DNA of 64,000 bases from Escherichia coli. Lineage in GTDB: Bacteria > Pseudomonadota > Gammaproteobacteria > Enterobacterales > Enterobacteriaceae. This document shows, in pieces, positions 31,683 through 53,549 of the stretch. Under the pieces are notes generated by a model. That model was not told where the DNA came from. It did no database searches and saw only the letters and a program-made list of their open reading frames with translations. Each line of letters starts with the position of its first letter. Positions within the stretch are counted from its first letter, which is position 1. The translations under genes and the position numbers were made by a program. Location of the stretch: the NCBI RefSeq assembly GCF_044324875.1, contig NZ_CP172185.1; one strand, written 5' to 3'.

Positions 31683-32687
31683 CTCTGAAGCAAACTTAAA
31701 ACATCTCTGCACCATTCCATGCACGCATAAAAGTCATTCCGGCATTTCATTTTACATAACATAAACAGAACAATAATAATTACAACAACATTCACACCAG
31801 CATTACAGAACACACTCTGTCTGTTGTTATCACCAGAAATATCAGGAGTATTTAAATGATTATTTCCTCACCTGCAGATTACAGGGACGCCGCAAAACAC
31901 AGACTGCCACGCTTTCTTTTTGATTACATAGACGGCGGGGCTGTTACTGAAAAAACCATGCATGAAAATATGACCTCTTTATCTTCGGTCAGCCTCCGGC
32001 AGCAGGTGCTTTGTGGCGCCGGAGCCCCCGAACTGAACACCACCATCCTTGATTCAGAATGGGCCATGCCTGTTGCTCTGGGCCCCGTCGGTGCCACTGG
32101 CATGTACGCCCGTCGTGGAGAGGTGCAGGCAGCCAGAGCGGCCTCAGCAATGAACATCCCTTATACTCTCTCAACCGTCTCCGTCTGCCCGATCGAAGAG
32201 GTCGCCGGACACGCTGACGGGCAACTGTGGTCCCAGTTATACGTCCTTCGGGATCGTGGTTATATGCAAAACGCACTTGAACGCGCCTGGACTGCAGGTA
32301 TGAAAACCCTGGTATTTACCGTCGACATGCCTGTGCCGGGCTCCCGGTACAGGGATAACCATTCAGGGATGTCAGGTCCCCACGCCACACTGCGTCAGTA
32401 TCTTCAGGCCGTTCTTCATCCCCGCTGGGCGCTGGATGTGGGAATTGCCGGTCGTCCTCTGTCATTTGGTAACATCGAAACGTACACCGGGCATAAAATG
32501 TCGATGGATGACTATATGGGCTTTATCAGCAAAAACTTTGATCCCTCTATTGCATGGAACGATCTCGAATGGATCCGTGATGGCTGGAAAGGTAAACTGA
32601 TAATAAAAGGGATCCTTGTTCCGGAAGATGCAAAAAATGCTGTACTGAACCGCCCCGGGTTTCCTGGAGAGTGTTTTATCTGTGAAC

Positions 32688-33578
32688 TCAGGCTGCCAGA
32701 TCATCGTTTCCGATGGAAGCATAATAAGATTTTTCTGCTTCTGCCGGTGGGATATGGCCCAGCCTTTCCAGCAATCGTCGATTGTTATACCAGTCCACCC
32801 ACGTGAGTGTGGCCAGCTCCACTTCTGTCCGGTTTTTCCAGCTCTTACGGTGTATTACCTCCGCTTTGTAAAGGCCATTGATGCTCTCCGCCATCGCGTT
32901 GTCATACGAGTCACCAGTACTTCCTGTTGATGCCAGTAATCCGGCTTCCTTAAGCCGCTGTGTGTAGGCCAGCGATACATACTGAGAACCTTTATCACTG
33001 TGATGGACTGTGCCGGACGGTCGACGGGCCCATAACGCCTGCTCCAGAGCATCCAGCACGAATGTCGTTTCCATAGACGATGAGACCCGCCACCCCACGA
33101 TGTATCCGGCAAACACATCAATGATGAACGCCACATAGACGACCCCCTCCCATGTGCTGACGTAAGTAAAATCAGCCACCCACAACTGGTCAGGACGTTC
33201 TGCCACAAACTGACGGTTTACGCGGTCGCCTGCGGCAACGGCTTTCCGGCTGACGGTAGTGCGGACCTTTTTACCCCGGAGAACACCGGCAAGTCCCATA
33301 ACCGCCATGAGGCGCGCCACTGTACATCTGGCTACCCTGATTCCTTCCCGTAACAACTGACGCCAGACTTTACGCACACCGTATACCTGATGATTCCCAT
33401 CGTATACGCGCAGTATCTCTTTCTTCAGCCAGTCATCGCGCTGCGCACGGGCACTGCGTTTATAAGGATGATGTCGCTGTTGCTGACAGTGGTAATACGT
33501 TGACGGGGCAATATGTAGTTCACTGCATACCGGTCCGACCCCGTACAGCTTACGCAGCTTATCCAGCAGTGGCATCAC
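32688..33578 (-). CDS. IS629 OrfB transposase
   Basis: 296-aa DDE ORF. Confidence 0.9.
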
Positions 33579-33901
33579 TTTTTCCAGAGGCGGTCGAACT
33601 CCGCCTTCGCAAAATAAGCGGAAGCCTGGCGAAGGATATCGTTACTGCGGCGCAGTTCACGATTTTCACGTTCCAGCTCTTTCAGACGCTGACGTTCAGC
33701 GGTGGTGAGCCCGCCATCACCGCCTCCGGTATCCCGCTCATGCTGGCGTACCCAGACACGCAGAGTCTCCGGTGTACAGCCAATCTTTGGGGCAATGGAA
33801 CAAATTGCCGCCCACTGTGAGTCATATTCGCCCTGACTTTCCAGAACCATACGAATCGCCCTCTGACGGACTTCGGGGGAAAAACGAGTATTTTTAGTCA
33901 T
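33575..33901 (-). CDS. IS629 OrfA
   Basis: [33 protein letters not shown]... Confidence 0.9.
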
Positions 33902-34412
33902 TCTGTTTACCTCTTTCTCAGGGAGTTTAGTCTCCAGGATTCCCGGGGCGGTTCAGTACGGCTTGGCGCGGATGGCATCATTGTCTCCAATCATGGCGGA
34001 CGTCAGCTTGATGGTGCCATCCCCACGGCCAGGGCATTACCGGCGATAGCAGATGCAGTGGGTGATGACATCACGGTACTGGCGGATTCAGGTATTCGTT
34101 CCGGTGTGGATGTGGTCCGGATGCTTGCTCTGGGGGCAAAAGGTGTGCTGCTGGGAAGAGCGTATATTTACGCACTTGCCGCTGCGGGAAAAAAAGGCGT
34201 TGAGCACCTGCTCAGACTTTATGCTGAAGATATGAAAGTCACCATGACGCTGATCGGCGCTTCTTCTCCCGCTGATATCAGCAGCAGAAATCTTGAATAT
34301 CTGGAAAAAGAATTCTCCCGACATTCATCATCCTGACCAAAGTAAACCAGGCACATATCCTCCATGCTCCCGGGACAACAGAGCGCAGTTCGGGCACTAC
34401 AGCCTTACTGGT

Positions 34413-41934: not shown

Positions 41935-42019
41935 ACTTAGATGTCCGTCTATATCAGATGGGCGTCTAAGTTACCAATTTTCGTCTGATGGCTACATACG
42001 GCGGTCAGTTTACGCTTAC

Positions 42020-42290
42020 CATTGAGGCAATTGAAAAACCACTTTCTTCCCTGCCTTACTCACTTTCCCGTCACATCCTGGAACATCTGCGTAAACTCAC
42101 CAGTCACGAACCCGTGATTGGCATTATGGGGAAAAGCGGGGCCGGTAAATCCTCACTCTGTAATGCACTGTTTCAGGGGGAGGTCACCCCGGTCAGTGAT
42201 GTTCACGCCGGCACCCGGGAAGTGCGGCGCTTCCGTCTGAGTGGCCACGGTCACAGCATGATTATCACTGACCTGCCCGGGGTGGGCGAG
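42020..42290 (+). pseudogene. YeeP-like GTPase gene fragment (second copy), truncated on both sides
   Basis: Encodes IEAIEKPLSSLPYSLSRHILEHLRKLTSHEPVIGIMGKSGAGKSS…DLPGVGE, near-identical to the full gene at 13161-14033; 5' end replaced by the IS66 end, 3' end cut by IS629 at GVGE. Confidence 0.7.
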
Positions 42291-42332
42291 TGAACCGCCC
42301 CGGGTTTCCTGGAGAGTGTTTTATCTGTGAAC

Positions 42333-43223
42333 TCAGGCTGCCAGATCATCGTTTCCGATGGAAGCATAATAAGCTTTTTCTGCTTCTGCCGGTGGGATAT
42401 GGCCCAGCCTTTCCAGCAATCGTCGATTGTTATACCAGTCCACCCACGTGAGTGTGGCCAGCTCCACTTCTGTCCGGTTTTTCCAGCTCTTACGGTGTAT
42501 TACCTCCGCTTTGTAAAGGCCATTGATGCTCTCCGCCATCGCGTTGTCATACGAGTCACCAGTACTTCCTGTTGATGCCAGTAATCCGGCTTCCTTAAGC
42601 CGCTGTGTGTAGGCCAGCGATACATACTGAGAACCTTTATCACTGTGATGGACTGTGCCGGACGGTCGACGGGCCCATAACGCCTGCTCCAGAGCATCCA
42701 GCACGAATGTCGTTTCCATAGACGATGAGACCCGCCACCCCACGATGTATCCGGCAAACACATCAATGATGAACGCCACATAGACGACCCCCTGCCATGT
42801 GCTGACGTAAGTAAAATCAGCCACCCACAACTGGTCAGGACGTTCTGCCACAAACTGACGGTTTACGCGGTCGCCTGCGGCAACGGCTTTCCGGCTGACG
42901 GTAGTGCGGACCTTTTTACCCCGGAGAACACCGGCAAGTCCCATAACCGCCATGAGGCGCGCCACTGTACATCTGGCTACCCTGATTCCTTCCCGTAACA
43001 ACTGACGCCAGACTTTACGCACACCGTATACCTGATGATTCCCATCGTATACGCGCAGTATCTCTTTCTTCAGCCAGTCATCGCGCTGCGCACGGGCACT
43101 GCGTTTATCCGGATGATGTCGCTGTTGCTGACAGTGGTAATACGTTGACGGGGCAATATGTAGTTCACTGCATACCGGTCCGACCCCGTACAGCTTACGC
43201 AGCTTATCCAGCAGTGGCATCAC
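42333..43223 (-). CDS. IS629 OrfB transposase
   Basis: 296-aa DDE ORF. Confidence 0.9.
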
Positions 43224-43546
43224 TTTTTCCAGAGGCGGTCGAACTCCGCCTTCGCAAAATAAGCGGAAGCCTGGCGAAGGATATCGTTACTGCGGCGCAG
43301 TTCACGATTTTCACGTTCCAGCTCTTTCAGACGCTGACGTTCAGCGGTGGTGAGCCCGCCATCACCGCCTCCGGTATCCCGCTCATGCTGGCGTACCCAG
43401 ACACGCAGAGTCTCCGGTGTACAGCCAATCTTTGGGGCAATGGAACAAATTGCCGCCCACTGTGAGTCATATTCGCCCTGACTTTCCAGAACCATACGAA
43501 TCGCCCTCTGACGGACTTCGGGGGAAAAACGAGTATTTTTAGTCAT
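43220..43546 (-). CDS. IS629 OrfA
   Basis: 108-aa ORF. Confidence 0.9.
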
Positions 43547-43600
43547 TCTGTTTACCTCTTTCTCAGGGAGTTTAGTCTCCAGGATTCCCGGGGCGGTTCA

Positions 43601-45164: not shown

Positions 45165-45372
45165 TATAGGTCACATCACCGCACCACACCTGATTTGGCT
45201 CGGTCACGGCGAACTGCCGTTCAAGGTAGTTAGGGATAGCAACATGTTCATGACCACCACGTTTATACCGGTGAGTCGGCTGCTGACAGCTGACCAGCCC
45301 CAGCTCCTTGGCAATTTGACGTCCTTTCAGGCCTGGTGACCCACCTAATAACTCTGAGACTGCCTTCAGCAA
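45165..45372 (-). pseudogene. IS911 OrfB N-terminal fragment (5' exon of the intron insertion)
   Basis: …[36 protein letters not shown] ends one base before the intron 5' GTGTG; upstream IS body is missing and the fragment abuts the hsdR stop. Confidence 0.7.
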
Positions 45373-45386
45373 ACCATCACTCCTTT

Positions 45387-48300
45387 CTACCTACCCACCA
45401 TTCGTTGCATACTTTGCGTCCACGAGGCTTTAAATGCTGAATCTCCTGCGAACAACTTGTAGAGCTCAAGTTCATCTTTACGGCGTTGCAGCATGATTTC
45501 CTTGAGCATTTTTTCGAAGGCCAAATCTCGATTATGGGGATCTGGGTTGTTTTTGTATTTCGATTCGAAGTCAGGGTGATTGCGGATACTTTCAGCGATG
45601 TTCACGAACTTAACCTTTTGCTCTTCAGGTGTGGCACTCCAGCCCTGGAACCATCGCTCATTAAATGTGCGAATGATTTCATCCAGCGGGTCAGTTTCTT
45701 TTTCACCGCCATGCACCCCACGTGGGTTCGGATTTTGAGGATCAAGCTCCGCTTCTTGGTCACTAAGTTTAATGCTGTGGTTAAGCTTCACACGTTGCAA
45801 ACCGTATGAACTCAGATCGACAGAATCGAGAAGCTCATCAATAGCATCAGCATCGGGATCTTCCACTTTCAATTTCGGTATTAAAAACTTCAGGAACCAA
45901 AACAGTTTTTCCCAGCTGACCATTTCATAAGGCATGATAGAAGCCATCTGCCCATAGATTTTAACGAACTGTTTGGCTTTAATCTTAAAGTCCACTTTAG
46001 CTTCAGCTTCAAGATCTAGTTCATGGTCAAACCGCGCTGCGGCAATATCAATGATTGGACTGAGTGTTTGGGCGTCTTCATTCTTGAAATAACGCGTCAC
46101 AAAGTCTTCAACTTCATACCACTCGTACACACCGACATCGTCCATTTCATCTTTCAACTCGTGCAGTACGTTTATATCTGTAGCTTGGGACAATGACGTT
46201 GCTGTATAGAAAGGATCGAATGCTGATTGAATATCTTCAACCGAGTTGAAAAAATCCAGGATAAACAAGTCTTCTGTTTTCTTCCCTAGCTTAGGTGCAC
46301 TGCGATTGAGCCTAGATAGCGCCTGAACACACAAGACACTGGCGAGCTTCTTATCTACATACATGGCGCAAAGCTTAGGCTGGTCAAACCCAGTCAGATA
46401 CTTGTTAGCAACCACTAAAAGTCGATACTCATCGGTATCAAACATATCTTTGGTATCTGACTCGGCAAAACCATTAATATCTGCTTCGGTATATTCAATA
46501 CCATCAACTTCTTTGGTTCCTGAGAAAGCAATGGCAACTTTAAACGGGTTTCCTTGCTCCTCAAGTATTCGCCTTATCGCTTTGTAGTATCGAATGGCCG
46601 CCTCAATATTTTGAGTGACCACCATTCCTTTACCTTTACCTTTGAGCTTTTTCGTATTCACGACATGCGGAACAAAATGCTCCAGCATAATCTCTGCCTT
46701 GATATCAATTGTTTGCTGGCTTCGTTCTACATAAGCTCTGAGTTTTTTCTGCGCCTTTTTGGTATCAAACTCAGGGTTATCAGCAATTGATTTCTCAATC
46801 TCATAATAACTTTTGTACGTCGTATAATTTGCCAGCACATCCAAGATGAAGCCTTCTTCAATGGCTTGTTTCATCGAATACAAGTGAAACGGCTTGTAAG
46901 AGCCATCTTCTTGGCGTTGACCAAATTTCTCCAAAGTGCTGTTTTTTGGTGTCGCTGTAAATGCCAGGTACGACGCATTCCCGCGCATCTTACGCGATCT
47001 CATCGCCTGAAGGATTTTATCCTGAGCATCTTCTGCCTCTTCGACTTCAGACTTGCCCATCGCTCGGTTCATATTGTCATGCGCCGAACCAGACTGTGAG
47101 CTGTGTGCTTCATCGATGATCACTGCAAAGCGCTTGTCACTAAGATCGGCGATACCATCAATAATGAACGGGAATTTCTGAATCGTCGTTATAATAATCT
47201 TTTTGCCATTCTCCAGCGCCTGCTTAAGCTCAGAAGACTTATTCGCTGGGGCAATAATGTTCTTTACTTCAGAAAACTCTTTAATGTTATCCCGCAGCTG
47301 CTTGTCCAATAGGCGTCTATCGGTGACCACAATCACAGAGTCAAACAACGGCTGCTCCAAGCTTTTTCCGCCTGCCACATCAGACGAAGCAGGATAGGTT
47401 TCAATTAGCTGATAAGCTGCCCAGGTAATCGAGTTAGACTTACCTGAACCGGCTGAGTGTTGAATTAAGTAAGTCTGACCGACACCGTGCTGGGCGGCAT
47501 GGTCTACTAATTTTCTCACCACATCCAATTGATGGTATCGAGGAAAGAACAGGGTTCGCTTTGGTAATGGATCTTTGCTTGACCCATCCAGACGCACAAA
47601 ATGCTGAATAATATTCGCCAAGCTGTCTTTAGTGAATACTTCTTGCCATAGGTATGCCGTTTTATGGCCAGATGGATTCGGCGGGTTGCCTTGTCCAAGA
47701 TTGTGACCTTTATTGAACGGCAAGAAGAATGTACTGCTACCTGATAACTTGGTGGTCATATACACTTCGTCGGTATCGACCGCCATATGCACTAGGCAGC
47801 GGCCAAAGGTCAGCAATGGCTGAGTTGCATCCCGATCATCTCGATACTGCTTTTGGCCGTGATAACGTGCTGTTTGCCCGGTCCATGCGTTCTTCAACTC
47901 CAGCGTTATCAAGGGTATTCCGTTGATAAACAATACCATGTCGATTTCTTGTAGGGGATTTACCATGGAATAGCGCACTTGGCGAGTACAACTAAACACG
48001 TTATCTGCAAAGTTTTGCTTTACCTTCTCACTACTACTTGCCAAAGGGGCTGGATAGAGCAAATTGAAATGAGCATCGTCTACGCTTAGCCCTTTCTTAA
48101 GTAAATGAAGAATGCCATGCTTCTTAATCAGTCGGTCAAATCGTTCGAGTAACTTACGTTGCCAATCTGAGGGGTTGTTCTTTTGCAGTTTGGCCAACTC
48201 TACTTCTTGTGTCTTTTGCAGAAATTGCCAGAAAAAACGTTCATCAATGGCATATTGCATATTAAAGTCACTAGCAGCACCAATGAAGTATCCAGCACCC

Positions 48301-48404
48301 AGTGACTGCTGACTCAGTCCCTCTTTAAGCTCTTCAGCACTGATCCCAGCCAGACATTTCTCAATGGCCGACTCTAATGCTTGTTCATTGGTTTGACTGA
48401 CCAT
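45387..48404 (-). CDS. hsdR: Type I restriction enzyme R subunit (HsdR)
   Basis: 1005-aa ORF with N-terminal PD-(D/E)xK nuclease motif (DMVLF…ITLELK), SF2 helicase motifs ([12 protein letters not shown]-type IIDEAHSSQ); 14 bp after the upstream gene with AAGGGA RBS. Confidence 0.9.
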
Positions 48405-48418
48405 AATTGTAAATTCCC

Positions 48419-49582
48419 TTAATCAAAATTCTTCTGTTTCATTGCCTCAGCCGCTTTTTGCAGCGGTCCTTTTAAGGCTTTTTCTAACTTTGTCATCTGC
48501 TCTAAGTGCCACGCAACCGCTTGGGGCCAAGTCTCTTTGTTAAACCCGTCAGCTTTGGTCGAAAACTGGATACGGCAAGATTTCTTCTCATCCAGCCTCA
48601 TCCACTCAAGTTCTGCACCAAAAGTATGCTCAATGTCTTGTTTGGACTGACTCAACAAATCAAAAAGGTATTTATTCTCTTCGGTAACCCCACGGCTGAT
48701 CCAAAGCTCTACTCGAAGCTCTTTTTGCAGAAATATCAGGTTATACGGACATCCACTTAGCCCTGAGCCTGCTGATAACCAATGATCTTTGCTTGGGCTA
48801 ATGTTGTTATAGAGTTGGCAAGAGCTTTTCTGAAACGCCTCTAAGGCACGCTCCCAGTACTCGCGACGCACGGTATGGCGGTTTTTTAGTACCACTTCGG
48901 TGGTTTTTTCTTCCGCTTCCTTGGCATTAATGCCGATCATCAACTCTTTCGCTTCTGGCGTTGGAATGATCTGGTCAATATTAATCAGTAGCTGTTCACC
49001 CAGTGAATAAGGCGTGATTTTGAAGCAGGCAATGCTAATGCCTTGACCCAATAACCACAGCGCGGTGCTGGTCACTTCTTTGCGAAAGTTTGCCGCAACT
49101 AACATAATGCGCTGGCTGTTACCCAGGTTGAGCTTTAACTCATCGAGATCGGGCGCATCCAAAAACTCACATATTCTAGCAGAGGCACTTGCAGGGGTAT
49201 TAAACAAGTCAACCTCTCCTGTTACAGGCTCATAGCGGTCTAAGTACTGCTGGTAAATTTCAACGATTTGCGCTTTGGTTAAACTTGCGCAGTAGGAGGC
49301 ATATTTAAGCGCCTGCCACACCACATCGCGGCCACTATCGTCCAGCTTGTTTTCAATAATGACCAAGTTGCCATCTTTATCCAGTGCCAGTAAATCTAAG
49401 CGTTCACGGGTGTCATCAAAGCCATCGAACTCTTTTTGAATAATCAGCAGCTCTTCACCCAGTGCGGAAGGCTCGTGTGCCAACCATTCCTGAAGATTTT
49501 TGCGCTCAGTAAAGCCCAACTCACTGAATCTCTTCGTCTTAACCGGACTAATCCTGTTGGTCTGATAATTTACCGTGAACAT
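48419..49582 (-). CDS. hypothetical protein embedded between hsdS and hsdR; N-terminal PD-(D/E)xK-like nuclease motif, family not assigned
   Basis: 387-aa ORF; motif LDLLALDKDGNLVIIENK (D…E-x-K); no Walker A; ancestral hsdS stop is 9 nt before its ATG; same position that PrrC occupies in the EcoprrI locus but not PrrC-like in sequence. Confidence 0.7.
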   Translation of the reverse strand: MFTVNYQTNRISPVKTKRFSELGFTERKNLQEWLAHEPSALGEELLIIQKEFDGFDDTRERLDLLALDKDGNLVIIENKLDDSGRDVVWQALKYASYCASLTKAQIVEIYQQYLDRYEPVTGEVDLFNTPASASARICEFLDAPDLDELKLNLGNSQRIMLVAANFRKEVTSTALWLLGQGISIACFKITPYSLGEQLLINIDQIIPTPEAKELMIGINAKEAEEKTTEVVLKNRHTVRREYWERALEAFQKSSCQLYNNISPSKDHWLSAGSGLSGCPYNLIFLQKELRVELWISRGVTEENKYLFDLLSQSKQDIEHTFGAELEWMRLDEKKSCRIQFSTKADGFNKETWPQAVAWHLEQMTKLEKALKGPLQKAAEAMKQKNFD

Positions 49583-49646
49583 ATTCGCTTCCTATTGCTC
49601 AACCTGAACCGCCCCGGGTTTCCTGGAGAGTGTTTTATCTGTGAAC

Positions 49647-50537
49647 TCAGGCTGCCAGATCATCGTTTCCGATGGAAGCATAATAAGCTTTTTCTGCTTC
49701 TGCCGGTGGGATATGGCCCAGCCTTTCCAGCAATCGTCGATTGTTATACCAGTCCACCCACGTGAGTGTGGCCAGCTCCACTTCTGTCCGGTTTTTCCAG
49801 CTCTTACGGTGTATTACCTCCGCTTTGTAAAGGCCATTGATGCTCTCCGCCATCGCGTTGTCATACGAGTCACCAGTACTTCCTGTTGATGCCAGTAATC
49901 CGGCTTCCTTAAGCCGCTGTGTGTAGGCCAGCGATACATACTGAGAACCTTTATCACTGTGATGGACTGTGCCGGACGGTCGACGGGCCCATAACGCCTG
50001 CTCCAGAGCATCCAGCACGAATGTCGTTTCCATAGACGATGAGACCCGCCACCCCACGATGTATCCGGCAAACACATCAATGATGAACGCCACATAGACG
50101 ACCCCCTGCCATGTGCTGACGTAAGTAAAATCAGCCACCCACAACTGGTCAGGACGTTCTGCCACAAACTGACGGTTTACGCGGTCGCCTGCGGCAACGG
50201 CTTTCCGGCTGACGGTAGTGCGGACCTTTTTACCCCGGAGAACACCGGCAAGTCCCATAACCGCCATGAGGCGCGCCACTGTACATCTGGCTACCCTGAT
50301 TCCTTCCCGTAACAACTGACGCCAGACTTTACGCACACCGTATACCTGATGATTCCCATCGTATACGCGCAGTATCTCTTTCTTCAGCCAGTCATCGCGC
50401 TGCGCACGGGCACTGCGTTTATCCGGATGATGTCGCTGTTGCTGACAGTGGTAATACGTTGACGGGGCAATATGTAGTTCACTGCATACCGGTCCGACCC
50501 CGTACAGCTTACGCAGCTTATCCAGCAGTGGCATCAC
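49647..50537 (-). CDS. IS629 OrfB transposase
   Basis: 296-aa DDE ORF. Confidence 0.9.
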
Positions 50538-50860
50538 TTTTTCCAGAGGCGGTCGAACTCCGCCTTCGCAAAATAAGCGGAAGCCTGGCGAAGGATATCG
50601 TTACTGCGGCGCAGTTCACGATTTTCACGTTCCAGCTCTTTCAGACGCTGACGTTCAGCGGTGGTGAGCCCGCCATCACCGCCTCCGGTATCCCGCTCAT
50701 GCTGGCGTACCCAGACACGCAGAGTCTCCGGTGTACAGCCAATCTTTGGGGCAATGGAACAAATTGCCGCCCACTGTGAGTCATATTCGCCCTGACTTTC
50801 CAGAACCATACGAATCGCCCTCTGACGGACTTCGGGGGAAAAACGAGTATTTTTAGTCAT
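50534..50860 (-). CDS. IS629 OrfA
   Basis: 108-aa ORF. Confidence 0.9.
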
Positions 50861-50914
50861 TCTGTTTACCTCTTTCTCAGGGAGTTTAGTCTCCAGGATT
50901 CCCGGGGCGGTTCA

Positions 50915-51526
50915 TTGGGAAGTTGTGCCTCTAAAAAGGTTGGCGGTCTTGAGCCCTTCTGTGAAAGTTTCAAATAGAAAGTCCAAAGAATTAGTTACTT
51001 TCTTAGCGATAGAAAAGGTTTCAACAGATGGATTTATTGATCAAGATACATTAATGCCTATATGTGATGTGAGCCAAGGTTTTACGGTTTTTAACCGGGG
51101 GGATGTGATTGTTGCAAAAATTACACCTTGCTTTGAAAATGGGAAATCTGCTTGGCTTAACAATCTTCAAACTGAGTTTGGTTACGGCTCAACCGAGTTT
51201 CACGTTTTAAGATGTGGTCAGAGAATTATAGGAAGTTTTCTCTACTTAATCGTTAGTTCGCCCCTTTTTCTTAATGCCGGTGAGGCTATGATGACTGGTT
51301 CAGCTGGTCAGAAGCGCGTGCCTAGTTCATTTATCCAAAACTTTCCTACCGCAATTCCCGGAGTTGCAGAGCAAGAAAAAATAGTATCAAAGGTAAAAGA
51401 GCTGTTTTCACAGATTGATGTTGTTGTGGCTTCTACGGTAAATCAAATCGAAAAGCTCAAAGAATACAAAACCACCCTGATCAACAGCGCCGTGACAGGA
51501 AAAATAAAAATCACCCCAGAAATGGT
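50915..51526 (+). pseudogene. hsdS: hsdS 3' segment (second target-recognition domain and C-terminal conserved region), inverted relative to the rest of hsdS
   Basis: Plus-strand ORF …VPLKRLAVLSPSVKVSNRK… continues the minus-strand hsdS 5' part when reverse-complemented (…DWIGDIPEH + WEVVPLKRL…); bounded by inverted IS629 copies. Confidence 0.8.
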
Positions 51527-51580
51527 TGAACCGCCCCGGGAATCCTGGAGACTAAACTCCCTGAGAAAGAGGTAAACAGA

Positions 51581-51907
51581 ATGACTAAAAATACTCGTTT
51601 TTCCCCCGAAGTCCGTCAGAGGGCGATTCGTATGGTTCTGGAAAGTCAGGGCGAATATGACTCACAGTGGGCGGCAATTTGTTCCATTGCCCCAAAGATT
51701 GGCTGTACACCGGAGACTCTGCGTGTCTGGGTACGCCAGCATGAGCGGGATACCGGAGGCGGTGATGGCGGGCTCACCACCGCTGAACGTCAGCGTCTGA
51801 AAGAGCTGGAACGTGAAAATCGTGAACTGCGCCGCAGTAACGATATCCTTCGCCAGGCTTCCGCTTATTTTGCGAAGGCGGAGTTCGACCGCCTCTGGAA
51901 AAAGTGA
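51581..51907 (+). CDS. IS629 OrfA
   Basis: 108-aa ORF. Confidence 0.9.
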
Positions 51908-52794
51908 TGCCACTGCTGGATAAGCTGCGTAAGCTGTACGGGGTCGGACCGGTATGCAGTGAACTACATATTGCCCCGTCAACGTATTACCACTGTCAGC
52001 AACAGCGACATCATCCGGATAAACGCAGTGCCCGTGCGCAGCGCGATGACTGGCTGAAGAAAGAGATACTGCGCGTATACGATGGGAATCATCAGGTATA
52101 CGGTGTGCGTAAAGTCTGGCGTCAGTTGTTACGGGAAGGAATCAGGGTAGCCAGATGTACAGTGGCGCGCCTCATGGCGGTTATGGGACTTGCCGGTGTT
52201 CTCCGGGGTAAAAAGGTCCGCACTACCGTCAGCCGGAAAGCCGTTGCCGCAGGCGACCGCGTAAACCGTCAGTTTGTGGCAGAACGTCCTGACCAGTTGT
52301 GGGTGGCTGATTTTACTTACGTCAGCACATGGCAGGGGGTCGTCTATGTGGCGTTCATCATTGATGTGTTTGCCGGATACATCGTGGGGTGGCGGGTCTC
52401 ATCGTCTATGGAAACGACATTCGTGCTGGATGCTCTGGAGCAGGCGTTATGGGCCCGTCGACCGTCCGGCACAGTCCATCACAGTGATAAAGGTTCTCAG
52501 TATGTATCGCTGGCCTACACACAGCGGCTTAAGGAAGCCGGATTACTGGCATCAACAGGAAGTACTGGTGACTCGTATGACAACGCGATGGCGGAGAGCA
52601 TCAATGGCCTTTACAAAGCGGAGGTAATACACCGTAAGAGCTGGAAAAACCGGACAGAAGTGGAGCTGGCCACACTCACGTGGGTGGACTGGTATAACAA
52701 TCGACGATTGCTGGAAAGGCTGGGCCATATCCCACCGGCAGAAGCAGAAAAAGCTTATTATGCTTCCATCGGAAACGATGATCTGGCAGCCTGA
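51904..52794 (+). CDS. IS629 OrfB transposase
   Basis: 296-aa DDE ORF. Confidence 0.9.
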
Positions 52795-52836
52795 GTTCAC
52801 AGATAAAACACTCTCCAGGAAACCCGGGGCGGTTCA

Positions 52837-53543
52837 CAATGCTCTGGAATATCTCCAATCCAATCCACACCGGAGTCTTTCATTGGCACATTGGGATCAA
52901 GCCCTTGGGTCACCGCCTGTTGGATGATGATCTGCTTATGTTCTTTTAACAGATTAATTTGCTTTTCTTTGATCGAAATCGCTTCGTCGATTAGAGCGAT
53001 TTTCTTGTCTAGGAAGTTGGCGATACGGGTTTGTTGCTCATGGGGAGGAACAAACGTCTTAAAACTCAGAAATGAATCTTTAGGAATTGTATTTCTCAGG
53101 CCACGATAAAGCGGTTTAAGCATCTTTTTTGCATCAAGGTTCATATAAAAATAGTATAAAAACCTATTATCAAAATTGTCATTTAGTTCAAAAACGGTAT
53201 ATGCACCAGTAATCATCCCATTAAATGGCGACAACCCAACAGTTCTGGGTGTTTCTTCCACGTCGAACAAGCAGAAAATGAAATCTCCACACTGCACTTC
53301 TTGATAAGTATCGAACTCTGCTGGGAACTTACCCTCTGGGTTTTCCATATCACGCTTAATCACACCTCTGAGAGTAAGCGATAGCAAATCATATTCGCTT
53401 GAGCGTTTTCCAACCTGTTTTTTCTTCAAGCGAAAGATGTGCTTATTAGCTAATAAGCTCCAAGACGCAGGAATATCCCCTAGCCATTCAACACCTGAAT
53501 CCTTATAAACCTCATATTTCGGCATTTCAGAAATCTTCATCAT
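52837..53543 (-). pseudogene. hsdS: hsdS 5' part (first target-recognition domain and central conserved region)
   Basis: MMKISEMPKYEVYKDSGVEWLGDIPASW… with repeated KDSGV(E/D)W(L/I)GDIP motif at the start of each TRD; interrupted after …DIPEH by IS629. Confidence 0.85.
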
Positions 53544-53549
53544 AACGAC

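Follow-up and report, generated by a model that had tools for sequence, protein, structure and literature searches.

A DUF4268 (PDC-S11) protein nested between hsdS and hsdR of an IS629-damaged Type I operon in Escherichia coli is most likely a self-contained DNA nuclease

The analysis of a 64,000-nucleotide stretch of Escherichia coli DNA (contig NZ_CP172185.1; hereafter, the window) centred on the 387-aa protein encoded between hsdS and hsdR of a Type I restriction-modification operon, here designated X. On the strength of its profile matches, X belongs both to the Pfam family DUF4268 and to the PADLOC family PDC-S11, and its sequence features and distribution indicate that it is most likely a self-contained DNA nuclease carried inside restriction operons, rather than a PrrC-like partner of the Type I enzyme. 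X is a functional gene, under purifying selection and horizontally mobile, and the locus that contains it represents a common module, hsdM-hsdS-DUF4268-hsdR, that spreads horizontally and has here been damaged recently by IS629. The operon and the insertions it has received are laid out in the window as follows.

45387..48404, minus strand: hsdR, intact, 1005 aa (ORF; matches the hsdR genes of loci L001 and L083)
48419..49582, minus strand: X, ORF of 387 aa with an ATG start, DUF4268 / PDC-S11 protein, identical to RefSeq WP_001349632.1
49592..49604, minus strand: hsdS fragment 3, the last codons and the stop (..VEQ*, at 49592-49603), 9 nt before the ATG of X; maps to the reference
49605..50914, minus strand: IS629 copy A, 1310 bp, three codons before the hsdS stop and immediately upstream of X; IS end sequence read
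50913..51529, plus strand: hsdS fragment 2 (TRD2 region), 617 bp, inverted with respect to the operon; maps reversed to 12788-13404 of L082 and 11368-11984 of L001
51527..52836, plus strand: IS629 copy B, 1310 bp, in hsdS, 100% identical to the other copies, with an ALIL frameshift pseudoknot
52833..53543, minus strand: hsdS fragment 1 (N-terminal part, TRD1 and central repeat); maps to 13396-14106 of L082
53550..56009, minus strand: hsdM, intact ORF (100% tblastn match to the hsdM of L001)

The reading frame of X, its distance to hsdR and the AAGGGA ribosome-binding site in front of hsdR are exactly as described in the first-pass annotation. The stop codon of X occupies positions 48419-48421 and the hsdR ATG lies at 48404, leaving a gap of 14 nt that reads TAAGGGAATTTACAATTATG on the coding strand and contains the AAGGGA site. 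The layout of hsdS was resolved by comparison with an undamaged version of the locus on two E. coli chromosomes, L001 (NZ_CP033635) and L082 (strain GF4), the latter carrying the same hsdS allele as the window. The window is collinear with the reference at 48312-49604, which spans the last hsdS codons, the spacer and X, and again at 52833-53637. The 9-nt distance between the hsdS stop and the start of X, which had been put forward from a reconstructed hsdS, is present in both intact loci, and the order hsdM-hsdS-X-hsdR is shared by the window (with hsdS broken), L001, L082 and L083.

The disruption of hsdS was likewise recognized correctly at first pass. It involves two oppositely oriented IS629 copies, which share 100% identity with one another and with a third copy (42291-43600), and the 617 bp of hsdS between the two are inverted. 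This arrangement is explained if IS629 inserted twice in hsdS and the two inverted copies then recombined. The disruption is recent, because the copies are identical to each other, and the Type I system of the window should be dead, since HsdS is required for methylation and restriction alike (PMC11411939). The suggestion that X might now be decaying as a result did not hold: the same ORF, without a single change, is carried by other strains, those with an intact locus included, and the break is recent. Furthermore, comparison with the Vibrio cholerae allele yielded a dN/dS of 0.045 for X (37 synonymous and 7 non-synonymous differences), comparable to the 0.053 obtained for hsdR.

The first-pass annotation had left X unassigned, with a C-terminal region that could be placed in no family. 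Database searches resolved both points. The nucleotide sequence of X is 100% identical to genes annotated as encoding a DUF4268 domain-containing protein (WP_001349632.1). Of 5,426 complete E. coli genomes, 58 carry X, on the chromosome in 38 cases and on a plasmid in 20. Residues 238-372 match the Pfam DUF4268 model (PF14088; E=2e-39, positions 1-138 of 140), and the only further Pfam matches are weak hits to PD-(D/E)xK and NucS_C within aa 29-104. The whole protein aligns end to end with the PDC-S11 model PDLC04913 of PADLOC-DB (aa 1-383 on positions 1-373 of 375; E=4.5e-182, 603 bits), and seven additional PDC-S11 models match it at E<=2.3e-30. A filter-free phmmer search against 1.84 billion cluster representatives (50% identity level) returned 5,540 proteins at E<=1e-3; the 478 relatives at E<=1e-30 are mostly full length, at approximately 360-400 aa. 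Proteins 97-99% identical to X are encoded in V. cholerae, V. parahaemolyticus, Proteus, Providencia, Morganella, Salmonella, Alteromonas and Marinomonas.

These assignments also bear on the claim that X is a candidate novel defence gene. A defence role remains plausible; the novelty does not, given that PDC-S11 had already been nominated, that the family counts more than 5,000 representatives and that X occurs in 58 E. coli genomes. The PDC families, 145 "phage defence candidates", were compiled from genes that lie within Type I, BREX and DISARM clusters (Payne, Hughes, Fineran & Jackson 2024, bioRxiv 10.1101/2024.01.29.577857). The argument from embedding is hence not new for X, because those authors made it systematically and PDC-S11 was among its outputs. 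Earlier work had thus already recorded the protein and its family, its embedding in the operon and its candidate role in defence, and publications describe the hsdS-hsdR gap as a place where complementary defence genes dock (PrrC, RloF, TgvAB and the PDC candidates). X agrees with PDC-S11 in matching the profile at full length and in sitting embedded in a Type I cluster, with no structural difference, and PDC-S11 is itself a bioinformatic candidate, defined by "guilt-by-embedding". The literature searched returned no experimental test of PDC-S11 (phenotype, mechanism or anti-phage activity), nothing further on PF14088 or NucS-like defence and, as far as found, no direct experiment on the X subfamily or explanation of target recognition by DUF4268.

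The check by Pfam and structure prediction that had been proposed at first pass returned the architecture it had anticipated, with a PD-(D/E)xK fold at the N-terminus (AlphaFold2, Foldseek) and DUF4268 at the C-terminus. The corresponding features are located in the window as follows.

48467..48871, minus strand: DUF4268 domain, aa 238-372, predicted T3SS-chaperone/YbjN-like fold between two long helices
48965..49582, minus strand: predicted NucS/RecB-type PD-(D/E)xK nuclease domain, approximately aa 1-206 (weak NCBIfam and Pfam NucS matches, profile against PDB, Foldseek, AlphaFold2)
49301..49315, minus strand: motif IV, Q90-x-x-x-Y94 (RecB/NucS type), aligned to NucS Q187/Y191
49346..49396, minus strand: motifs II-III, D63 ... 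E77-N-K79, aligned to NucS D160/E174/K176

An N-terminal D...E-x-K nuclease motif had been noted from the sequence of X, and conservation across the family bears it out. The motif, LDLLALDKDGNLVIIENK, contains D63, E77 and K79, and all three residues are invariant or nearly so when X is aligned with 60 full-length homologues at 29-59% identity (n=61). Invariant positions in these 61 members comprise E26, D63, K79 and Y94, and conservation of at least 90% was observed for E51, D68, E77, Q90, W243 and W327, with E77 and Q90 each present in 60 of the 61. Searched as a single sequence against PDB chains, X returned nothing at E<=10; the profile of the 61-member alignment matched Pyrococcus abyssi NucS (2vld), with D63/E77/K79/Q90/Y94 aligned to NucS D160/E174/K176/Q187/Y191, the D...ExK...QxxxY set of the RecB/NucS group. 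AlphaFold2 modelling with the family alignment reached a pLDDT of 94.5, and Foldseek searches of the model against PDB placed NucS 2vld (E=2.8e-4) and EndoMS 5gke at the top for the N-terminal ~200 residues, with a weak match to Shedu SduA (8ps5, E=0.026).

X therefore shares with NucS/EndoMS its catalytic core, residue for residue, and these enzymes provide its best structural matches. It differs from NucS in falling far below the family cut-off, in the missing N-terminal domain, in the added DUF4268 and in its mobile, defence-island context. The NCBIfam NucS model scored 23.7 bits against a cut-off of 216 and covered only aa 25-101, Pfam NucS_C matched at E=0.072 and the NucS N-terminal domain had no Pfam match in X. 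Orthology of X with NucS was discarded on the unreached cut-off and the missing domain.

The commonest fusion partners described for DUF4268 are GmrSD Type IV enzymes, and the domain has been predicted to bind DNA (PMC4619093; PMC5714182). In the model, its likeness to T3SS chaperones and YbjN is seen at the fold level only; this fold is not among the known modified-base readers, and among viral structures (BFVD), the DUF4268 model had no Foldseek match at E<=0.001.

The genomic context of X homologues was surveyed in one genome per species, which yielded 80 loci with 49-87% identity to X. Type I genes were located by tblastn and all neighbouring ORFs were clustered. In the well-flanked subset, the 48 loci in which X has 5 kb or more of sequence on each side, Type I genes were sought within 7 kb and detected near X in 28 loci (58%). 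In about 19 of these 28, X is flanked by hsdS and hsdR, all in the same orientation; in a few, it comes immediately before hsdM or after hsdR. The remaining 20 of the 48 (42%) presented no Type I gene within this distance. The homologue survey suggested at first pass thus shows the hsdS-hsdR location in about 19 of the 48 loci and no nearby Type I gene in 20. The Type I partners themselves fall into at least two distant groups in tblastn searches with the window proteins, a near one in which HsdM is 70-97% and HsdR 67-84% identical to those of the window, and a distant one with values of 23-30% and 22-25%, respectively. Nesting of X in Type I operons of different families is hence frequent and non-obligatory.

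No recurrent neighbour of X was detected in the 20 well-flanked loci devoid of Type I genes, where the flanks hold integrases (7 loci), a Type IIG restriction-modification gene or housekeeping genes, such as gyrA, hisS and bamA in L009 and L010. Elsewhere, a GmrSD-like DUF262 pair resembling TgvAB/HEC-06 lies directly beside the X homologue in L002 and L006, and a SoFic cluster, present in six loci, is located between X and hsdR in L011, L019 and L026. The RhuM/Doc-like PDC-S23 shares the slot with X in L022 and L023, and the same cluster is found downstream of X in L066. X is among the commonest occupants of the hsdS-hsdR gap.

This distribution weighs directly on the proposal, made at first pass, that X is a restriction-modification-coupled effector in the sense of PrrC, kept inactive by the Type I complex and set free, at the cost of the cell, as a last resort once a phage blocks the enzyme. 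X resembles the PrrC of EcoprrI in occupying the slot between hsdS and hsdR of a Type I operon, and several features would fit such a partnership: the tight spacing of 9 and 14 nt, the presence of Type I genes near X in most well-flanked loci and the maintenance of the M-S-X-R order in nearly all relatives at least 66% identical to it. PrrC, however, has been described as almost exclusively embedded (bioRxiv 10.1101/2024.01.29.577857), and because 20 of the 48 well-flanked loci lack Type I genes, X appears autonomous rather than PrrC-like. That its partners come from distant Type I families also makes a conserved, specific protein-protein interface unlikely. In agreement with the earlier observation that X is not PrrC-like and lacks a Walker A motif, no GK[ST] was found in its translation, no ATPase domain in Pfam and no PrrC family in PADLOC at E<=1, and X differs from PrrC in its predicted DNA-nuclease fold and in lacking an ABC-type ATPase. 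Moreover, the window retains an intact X next to a destroyed hsdS, and the host evidently tolerates it. Selection should act against a toxic nuclease set free in this way, but the IS insertion may silence it. Taken together, we regard the PrrC-like reading as improbable, and an obligate Type I subunit or PrrC analogue was set aside as the main interpretation in view of the solitary loci. As a related and still less probable idea, DUF4268 might sense proteins, by binding either the anti-restriction proteins of phages or the Type I complex, in which case X would be a guard nuclease that fires when Type I is attacked. In function it would then parallel PrrC, with DNA as its target and a new sensor domain, and DUF4268-only tandem-repeat proteins and phage-encoded DUF4268 proteins would be decoys.

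The mobile elements that carry X speak to a different alternative, namely that it has no defence role and either serves repair or recombination as a NucS-like nuclease or is a selfish gene lodged in a permissive Type I gap. Its only recognizable catalytic relative is indeed the mismatch endonuclease NucS/EndoMS, and the hsdS-hsdR gap accepts many unrelated genes. X nonetheless lacks the N-terminal DNA-binding domain of NucS and scores far below the NCBIfam cut-off, and it travels on ICEs and plasmids in defence hotspots. In V. cholerae, the gene order is rumAB - brxR (WYL) - hsdM - hsdS - X - hsdR - ... - CBASS - traI, which places the module in the defence-rich variable region of an SXT/R391-type ICE, between rumAB and traI and near brxR and CBASS; the E. 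coli copy starts about 130 bp upstream of hsdM, without brxR. The plasmid location of 20 of the 58 E. coli copies, the defence genes that share its slot and the strong purifying selection across hosts, which speaks against junk, further weaken this alternative, and we consider it highly improbable. Together with its Type I system, X travels on SXT/R391-type ICEs and plasmids across Vibrio, Proteus, Providencia, Salmonella and E. coli.

Among characterized proteins, the closest functional parallel to X is provided by MdgA and MdgB, two DUF4268-containing nucleases recovered by functional selection that protect E. coli against T4 and not against T4-GT7 (Cell Host Microbe 2025, PMC12366544). Purified MdgA degrades T4 DNA far better than the unmodified DNA of T4-GT7, and its E77A mutant is inactive (PMC12366544). 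Like X, MdgA and MdgB combine a nuclease with DUF4268 in a single gene and are widespread across phyla. The catalytic Glu of MdgA is E77, and because the motif-III Glu of X is also E77 and is numbered exactly 77 in 46 of the 61 aligned members, MdgA probably belongs to the X family, a likeness judged by DUF4268 and residue number. MdgA differs from X in originating from a metagenomic insert, and text searches found no mention of its nuclease type or of a PDC or Type I context.

A second parallel is provided by position. The Type IV system TgvAB is embedded in the Type I operon of V. cholerae VPI-2 and is independent of HsdR restriction activity (PMC11411939). TgvAB, RloF of Campylobacter jejuni and other GmrSD-like systems share with X the hsdS-hsdR slot and the nesting of a modification-dependent system in a modification-blocked one. 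The proteins are unrelated: TgvAB comprises two genes, with DUF262/ParB-like and DUF1524/HNH domains, and X is a single PD-(D/E)xK gene with no DUF262 or DUF1524 match in Pfam and no GmrSD, BrxU or HEC-05/06 match in PADLOC. PADLOC also returned no Shedu/DUF4263 match. With their defining domains absent from its sequence, X is not assignable to PrrC, GmrSD/TgvAB or Shedu.

By analogy with these systems, X is probably, if by a modest margin of confidence, a Type IV-like modification-dependent DNA endonuclease, through which the operon would cover hypermodified phages that escape the Type I enzyme. The nuclease activity, the dependence on DNA modification and the complementary role that we infer for X can be put together as follows. 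X would be a DUF4268 / PDC-S11 nuclease that provides defence autonomously, from a single gene; its N-terminal domain would cut DNA by means of E26, D63, E77-x-K79 and Q90-xxx-Y94, and DUF4268 would serve as a sensor or specificity module. It would recognize and degrade phage DNA with hypermodified bases, such as the glucosyl-hydroxymethylcytosine of T-even phages, which a Type I enzyme cannot restrict; embedding X between hsdS and hsdR would therefore cover unmodified and modified invaders with one co-transferred operon. X would work without HsdMSR, and the IS629 break should therefore kill the Type I system and spare X, provided that X is still transcribed. A promoter and terminator scan of positions 45200-51000 identified fewer promoter-like sites than in shuffled sequences and none upstream of X, and so says little about transcription of X behind IS629.

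The step from DNA cleavage to modification dependence admits another interpretation, in which X is a defence nuclease with a different trigger, such as a phage protein, DNA ends or some other DNA structure (compare Shedu-type systems), that releases a non-specific NucS-like nuclease and confers direct immunity or abortive infection. The resemblance of the predicted DUF4268 fold to a protein-binding module would accord with it. The discrimination of T4 from T4-GT7 DNA by purified MdgA in vitro implies, on the other hand, that at least one DUF4268 nuclease reads DNA directly (PMC12366544), and both the repeated fusion of DUF4268 to GmrSD Type IV enzymes and the missing Shedu HMM match in PADLOC point away from it. 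We deem a trigger other than modified DNA rather unlikely and regard it as the main alternative. If the modification-dependent reading is correct, X and its Type I partner would make up a compact four-gene module that restricts both unmodified and hypermodified, T-even-like DNA, and this would bear on the host range of therapeutic phages in enteric and Vibrio pathogens. The window locus itself, as an IS-damaged copy of a common module, adds little to this picture.

The analysis of the hsdS gene located between hsdM and X identified two IS629 copies in inverted orientation within its coding sequence, and the 617-bp inversion observed in hsdS is the product of recombination between this pair. 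Five IS629 copies or fragments are present in the 64-kb window, all of them harboring the ALIL frameshift pseudoknot. Three of the five are identical over 1310 bp, one more presents 99.7% identity and the fifth is a 795-bp partial element. The copy at 42291 cuts short a GTPase-family ORF (41988-42293).

IS629 elements and group II intron in the window
32645-33955, IS629 copy or fragment
42291-43600, IS629 copy or fragment
49605-50914, IS629 copy, one of the inverted pair within hsdS
51527-52836, IS629 copy, other member of the inverted pair within hsdS
56690-56776, group II intron (RF00029), within the region upstream of hsdM (about 56100-59750)
58959-59753, IS629 copy or fragment

An IS3-family/IS629-like remnant shortly upstream of hsdM is interrupted by the group II intron (RF00029 in Rfam), which is accompanied by a reverse transcriptase of the ltrA type. 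This layout is common to the window and to the E. coli loci L001 (NZ_CP033635) and L082 (strain GF4).

The first target-recognition domain (TRD1) of hsdS is wholly unlike between the window and strain GF4, on the one hand, and strain ECCNB12-2 on the other (window 52833-53460 versus L001 10764-11176), whereas the operon outside TRD1 shows approximately 99.6-99.9% identity. The hsdS difference is a TRD1 swap, and the specificity of the Type I system would hence differ between window/GF4 and ECCNB12-2.

X-bearing Type I operons were also identified in other genera. In Marinomonas foliarum (L002 11161-14546) and Celerinatantimonas diazotrophica (L006 11161-14507), a two-gene DUF262 cassette resembling GmrSD/HEC-06 and TgvAB lies between the X homolog and hsdR, so that two putative Type IV-like modules are stacked in each of these operons. 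In Vibrio cholerae GCA_053220635.1 (L083 2064-21164), the operon resides within an SXT/R391-like ICE region that includes rumB/rumA. A WYL regulator of the BrxR type is encoded immediately 5' of hsdM, and hsdR is followed by a CBASS pair (SAVED-HNH effector and DncV-like cyclase) and then traI. The E. coli window lacks brxR, and the sequence it shares with L083 begins approximately 130 bp upstream of hsdM.

Three proteins (P0172, P0205 and P0229) consist solely of three to five tandem DUF4268 repeats, without any nuclease domain, and could operate as binding scaffolds, regulators or decoys. The phage protein family phrog_27742 (PHROGs) matches the DUF4268 region of X (residues 220-371, E=2.7e-17), indicating that phages also carry this domain, but its N-terminus (~120 residues) is unlike that of X. 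In P0244 (822 aa), the whole NucS-like nuclease module is duplicated in tandem within a single polypeptide; by visual inspection, the C-terminal region following each nuclease copy shows no resemblance to DUF4268.

Over its initial ~14 kb, the window is similar (74-94% identity) to the Ag43/DUF932/antirestriction-protein island segment of L001, and an Rfam IS102 RNA match (RF00124, 88 bits) was obtained at 12845-13041 on the minus strand.
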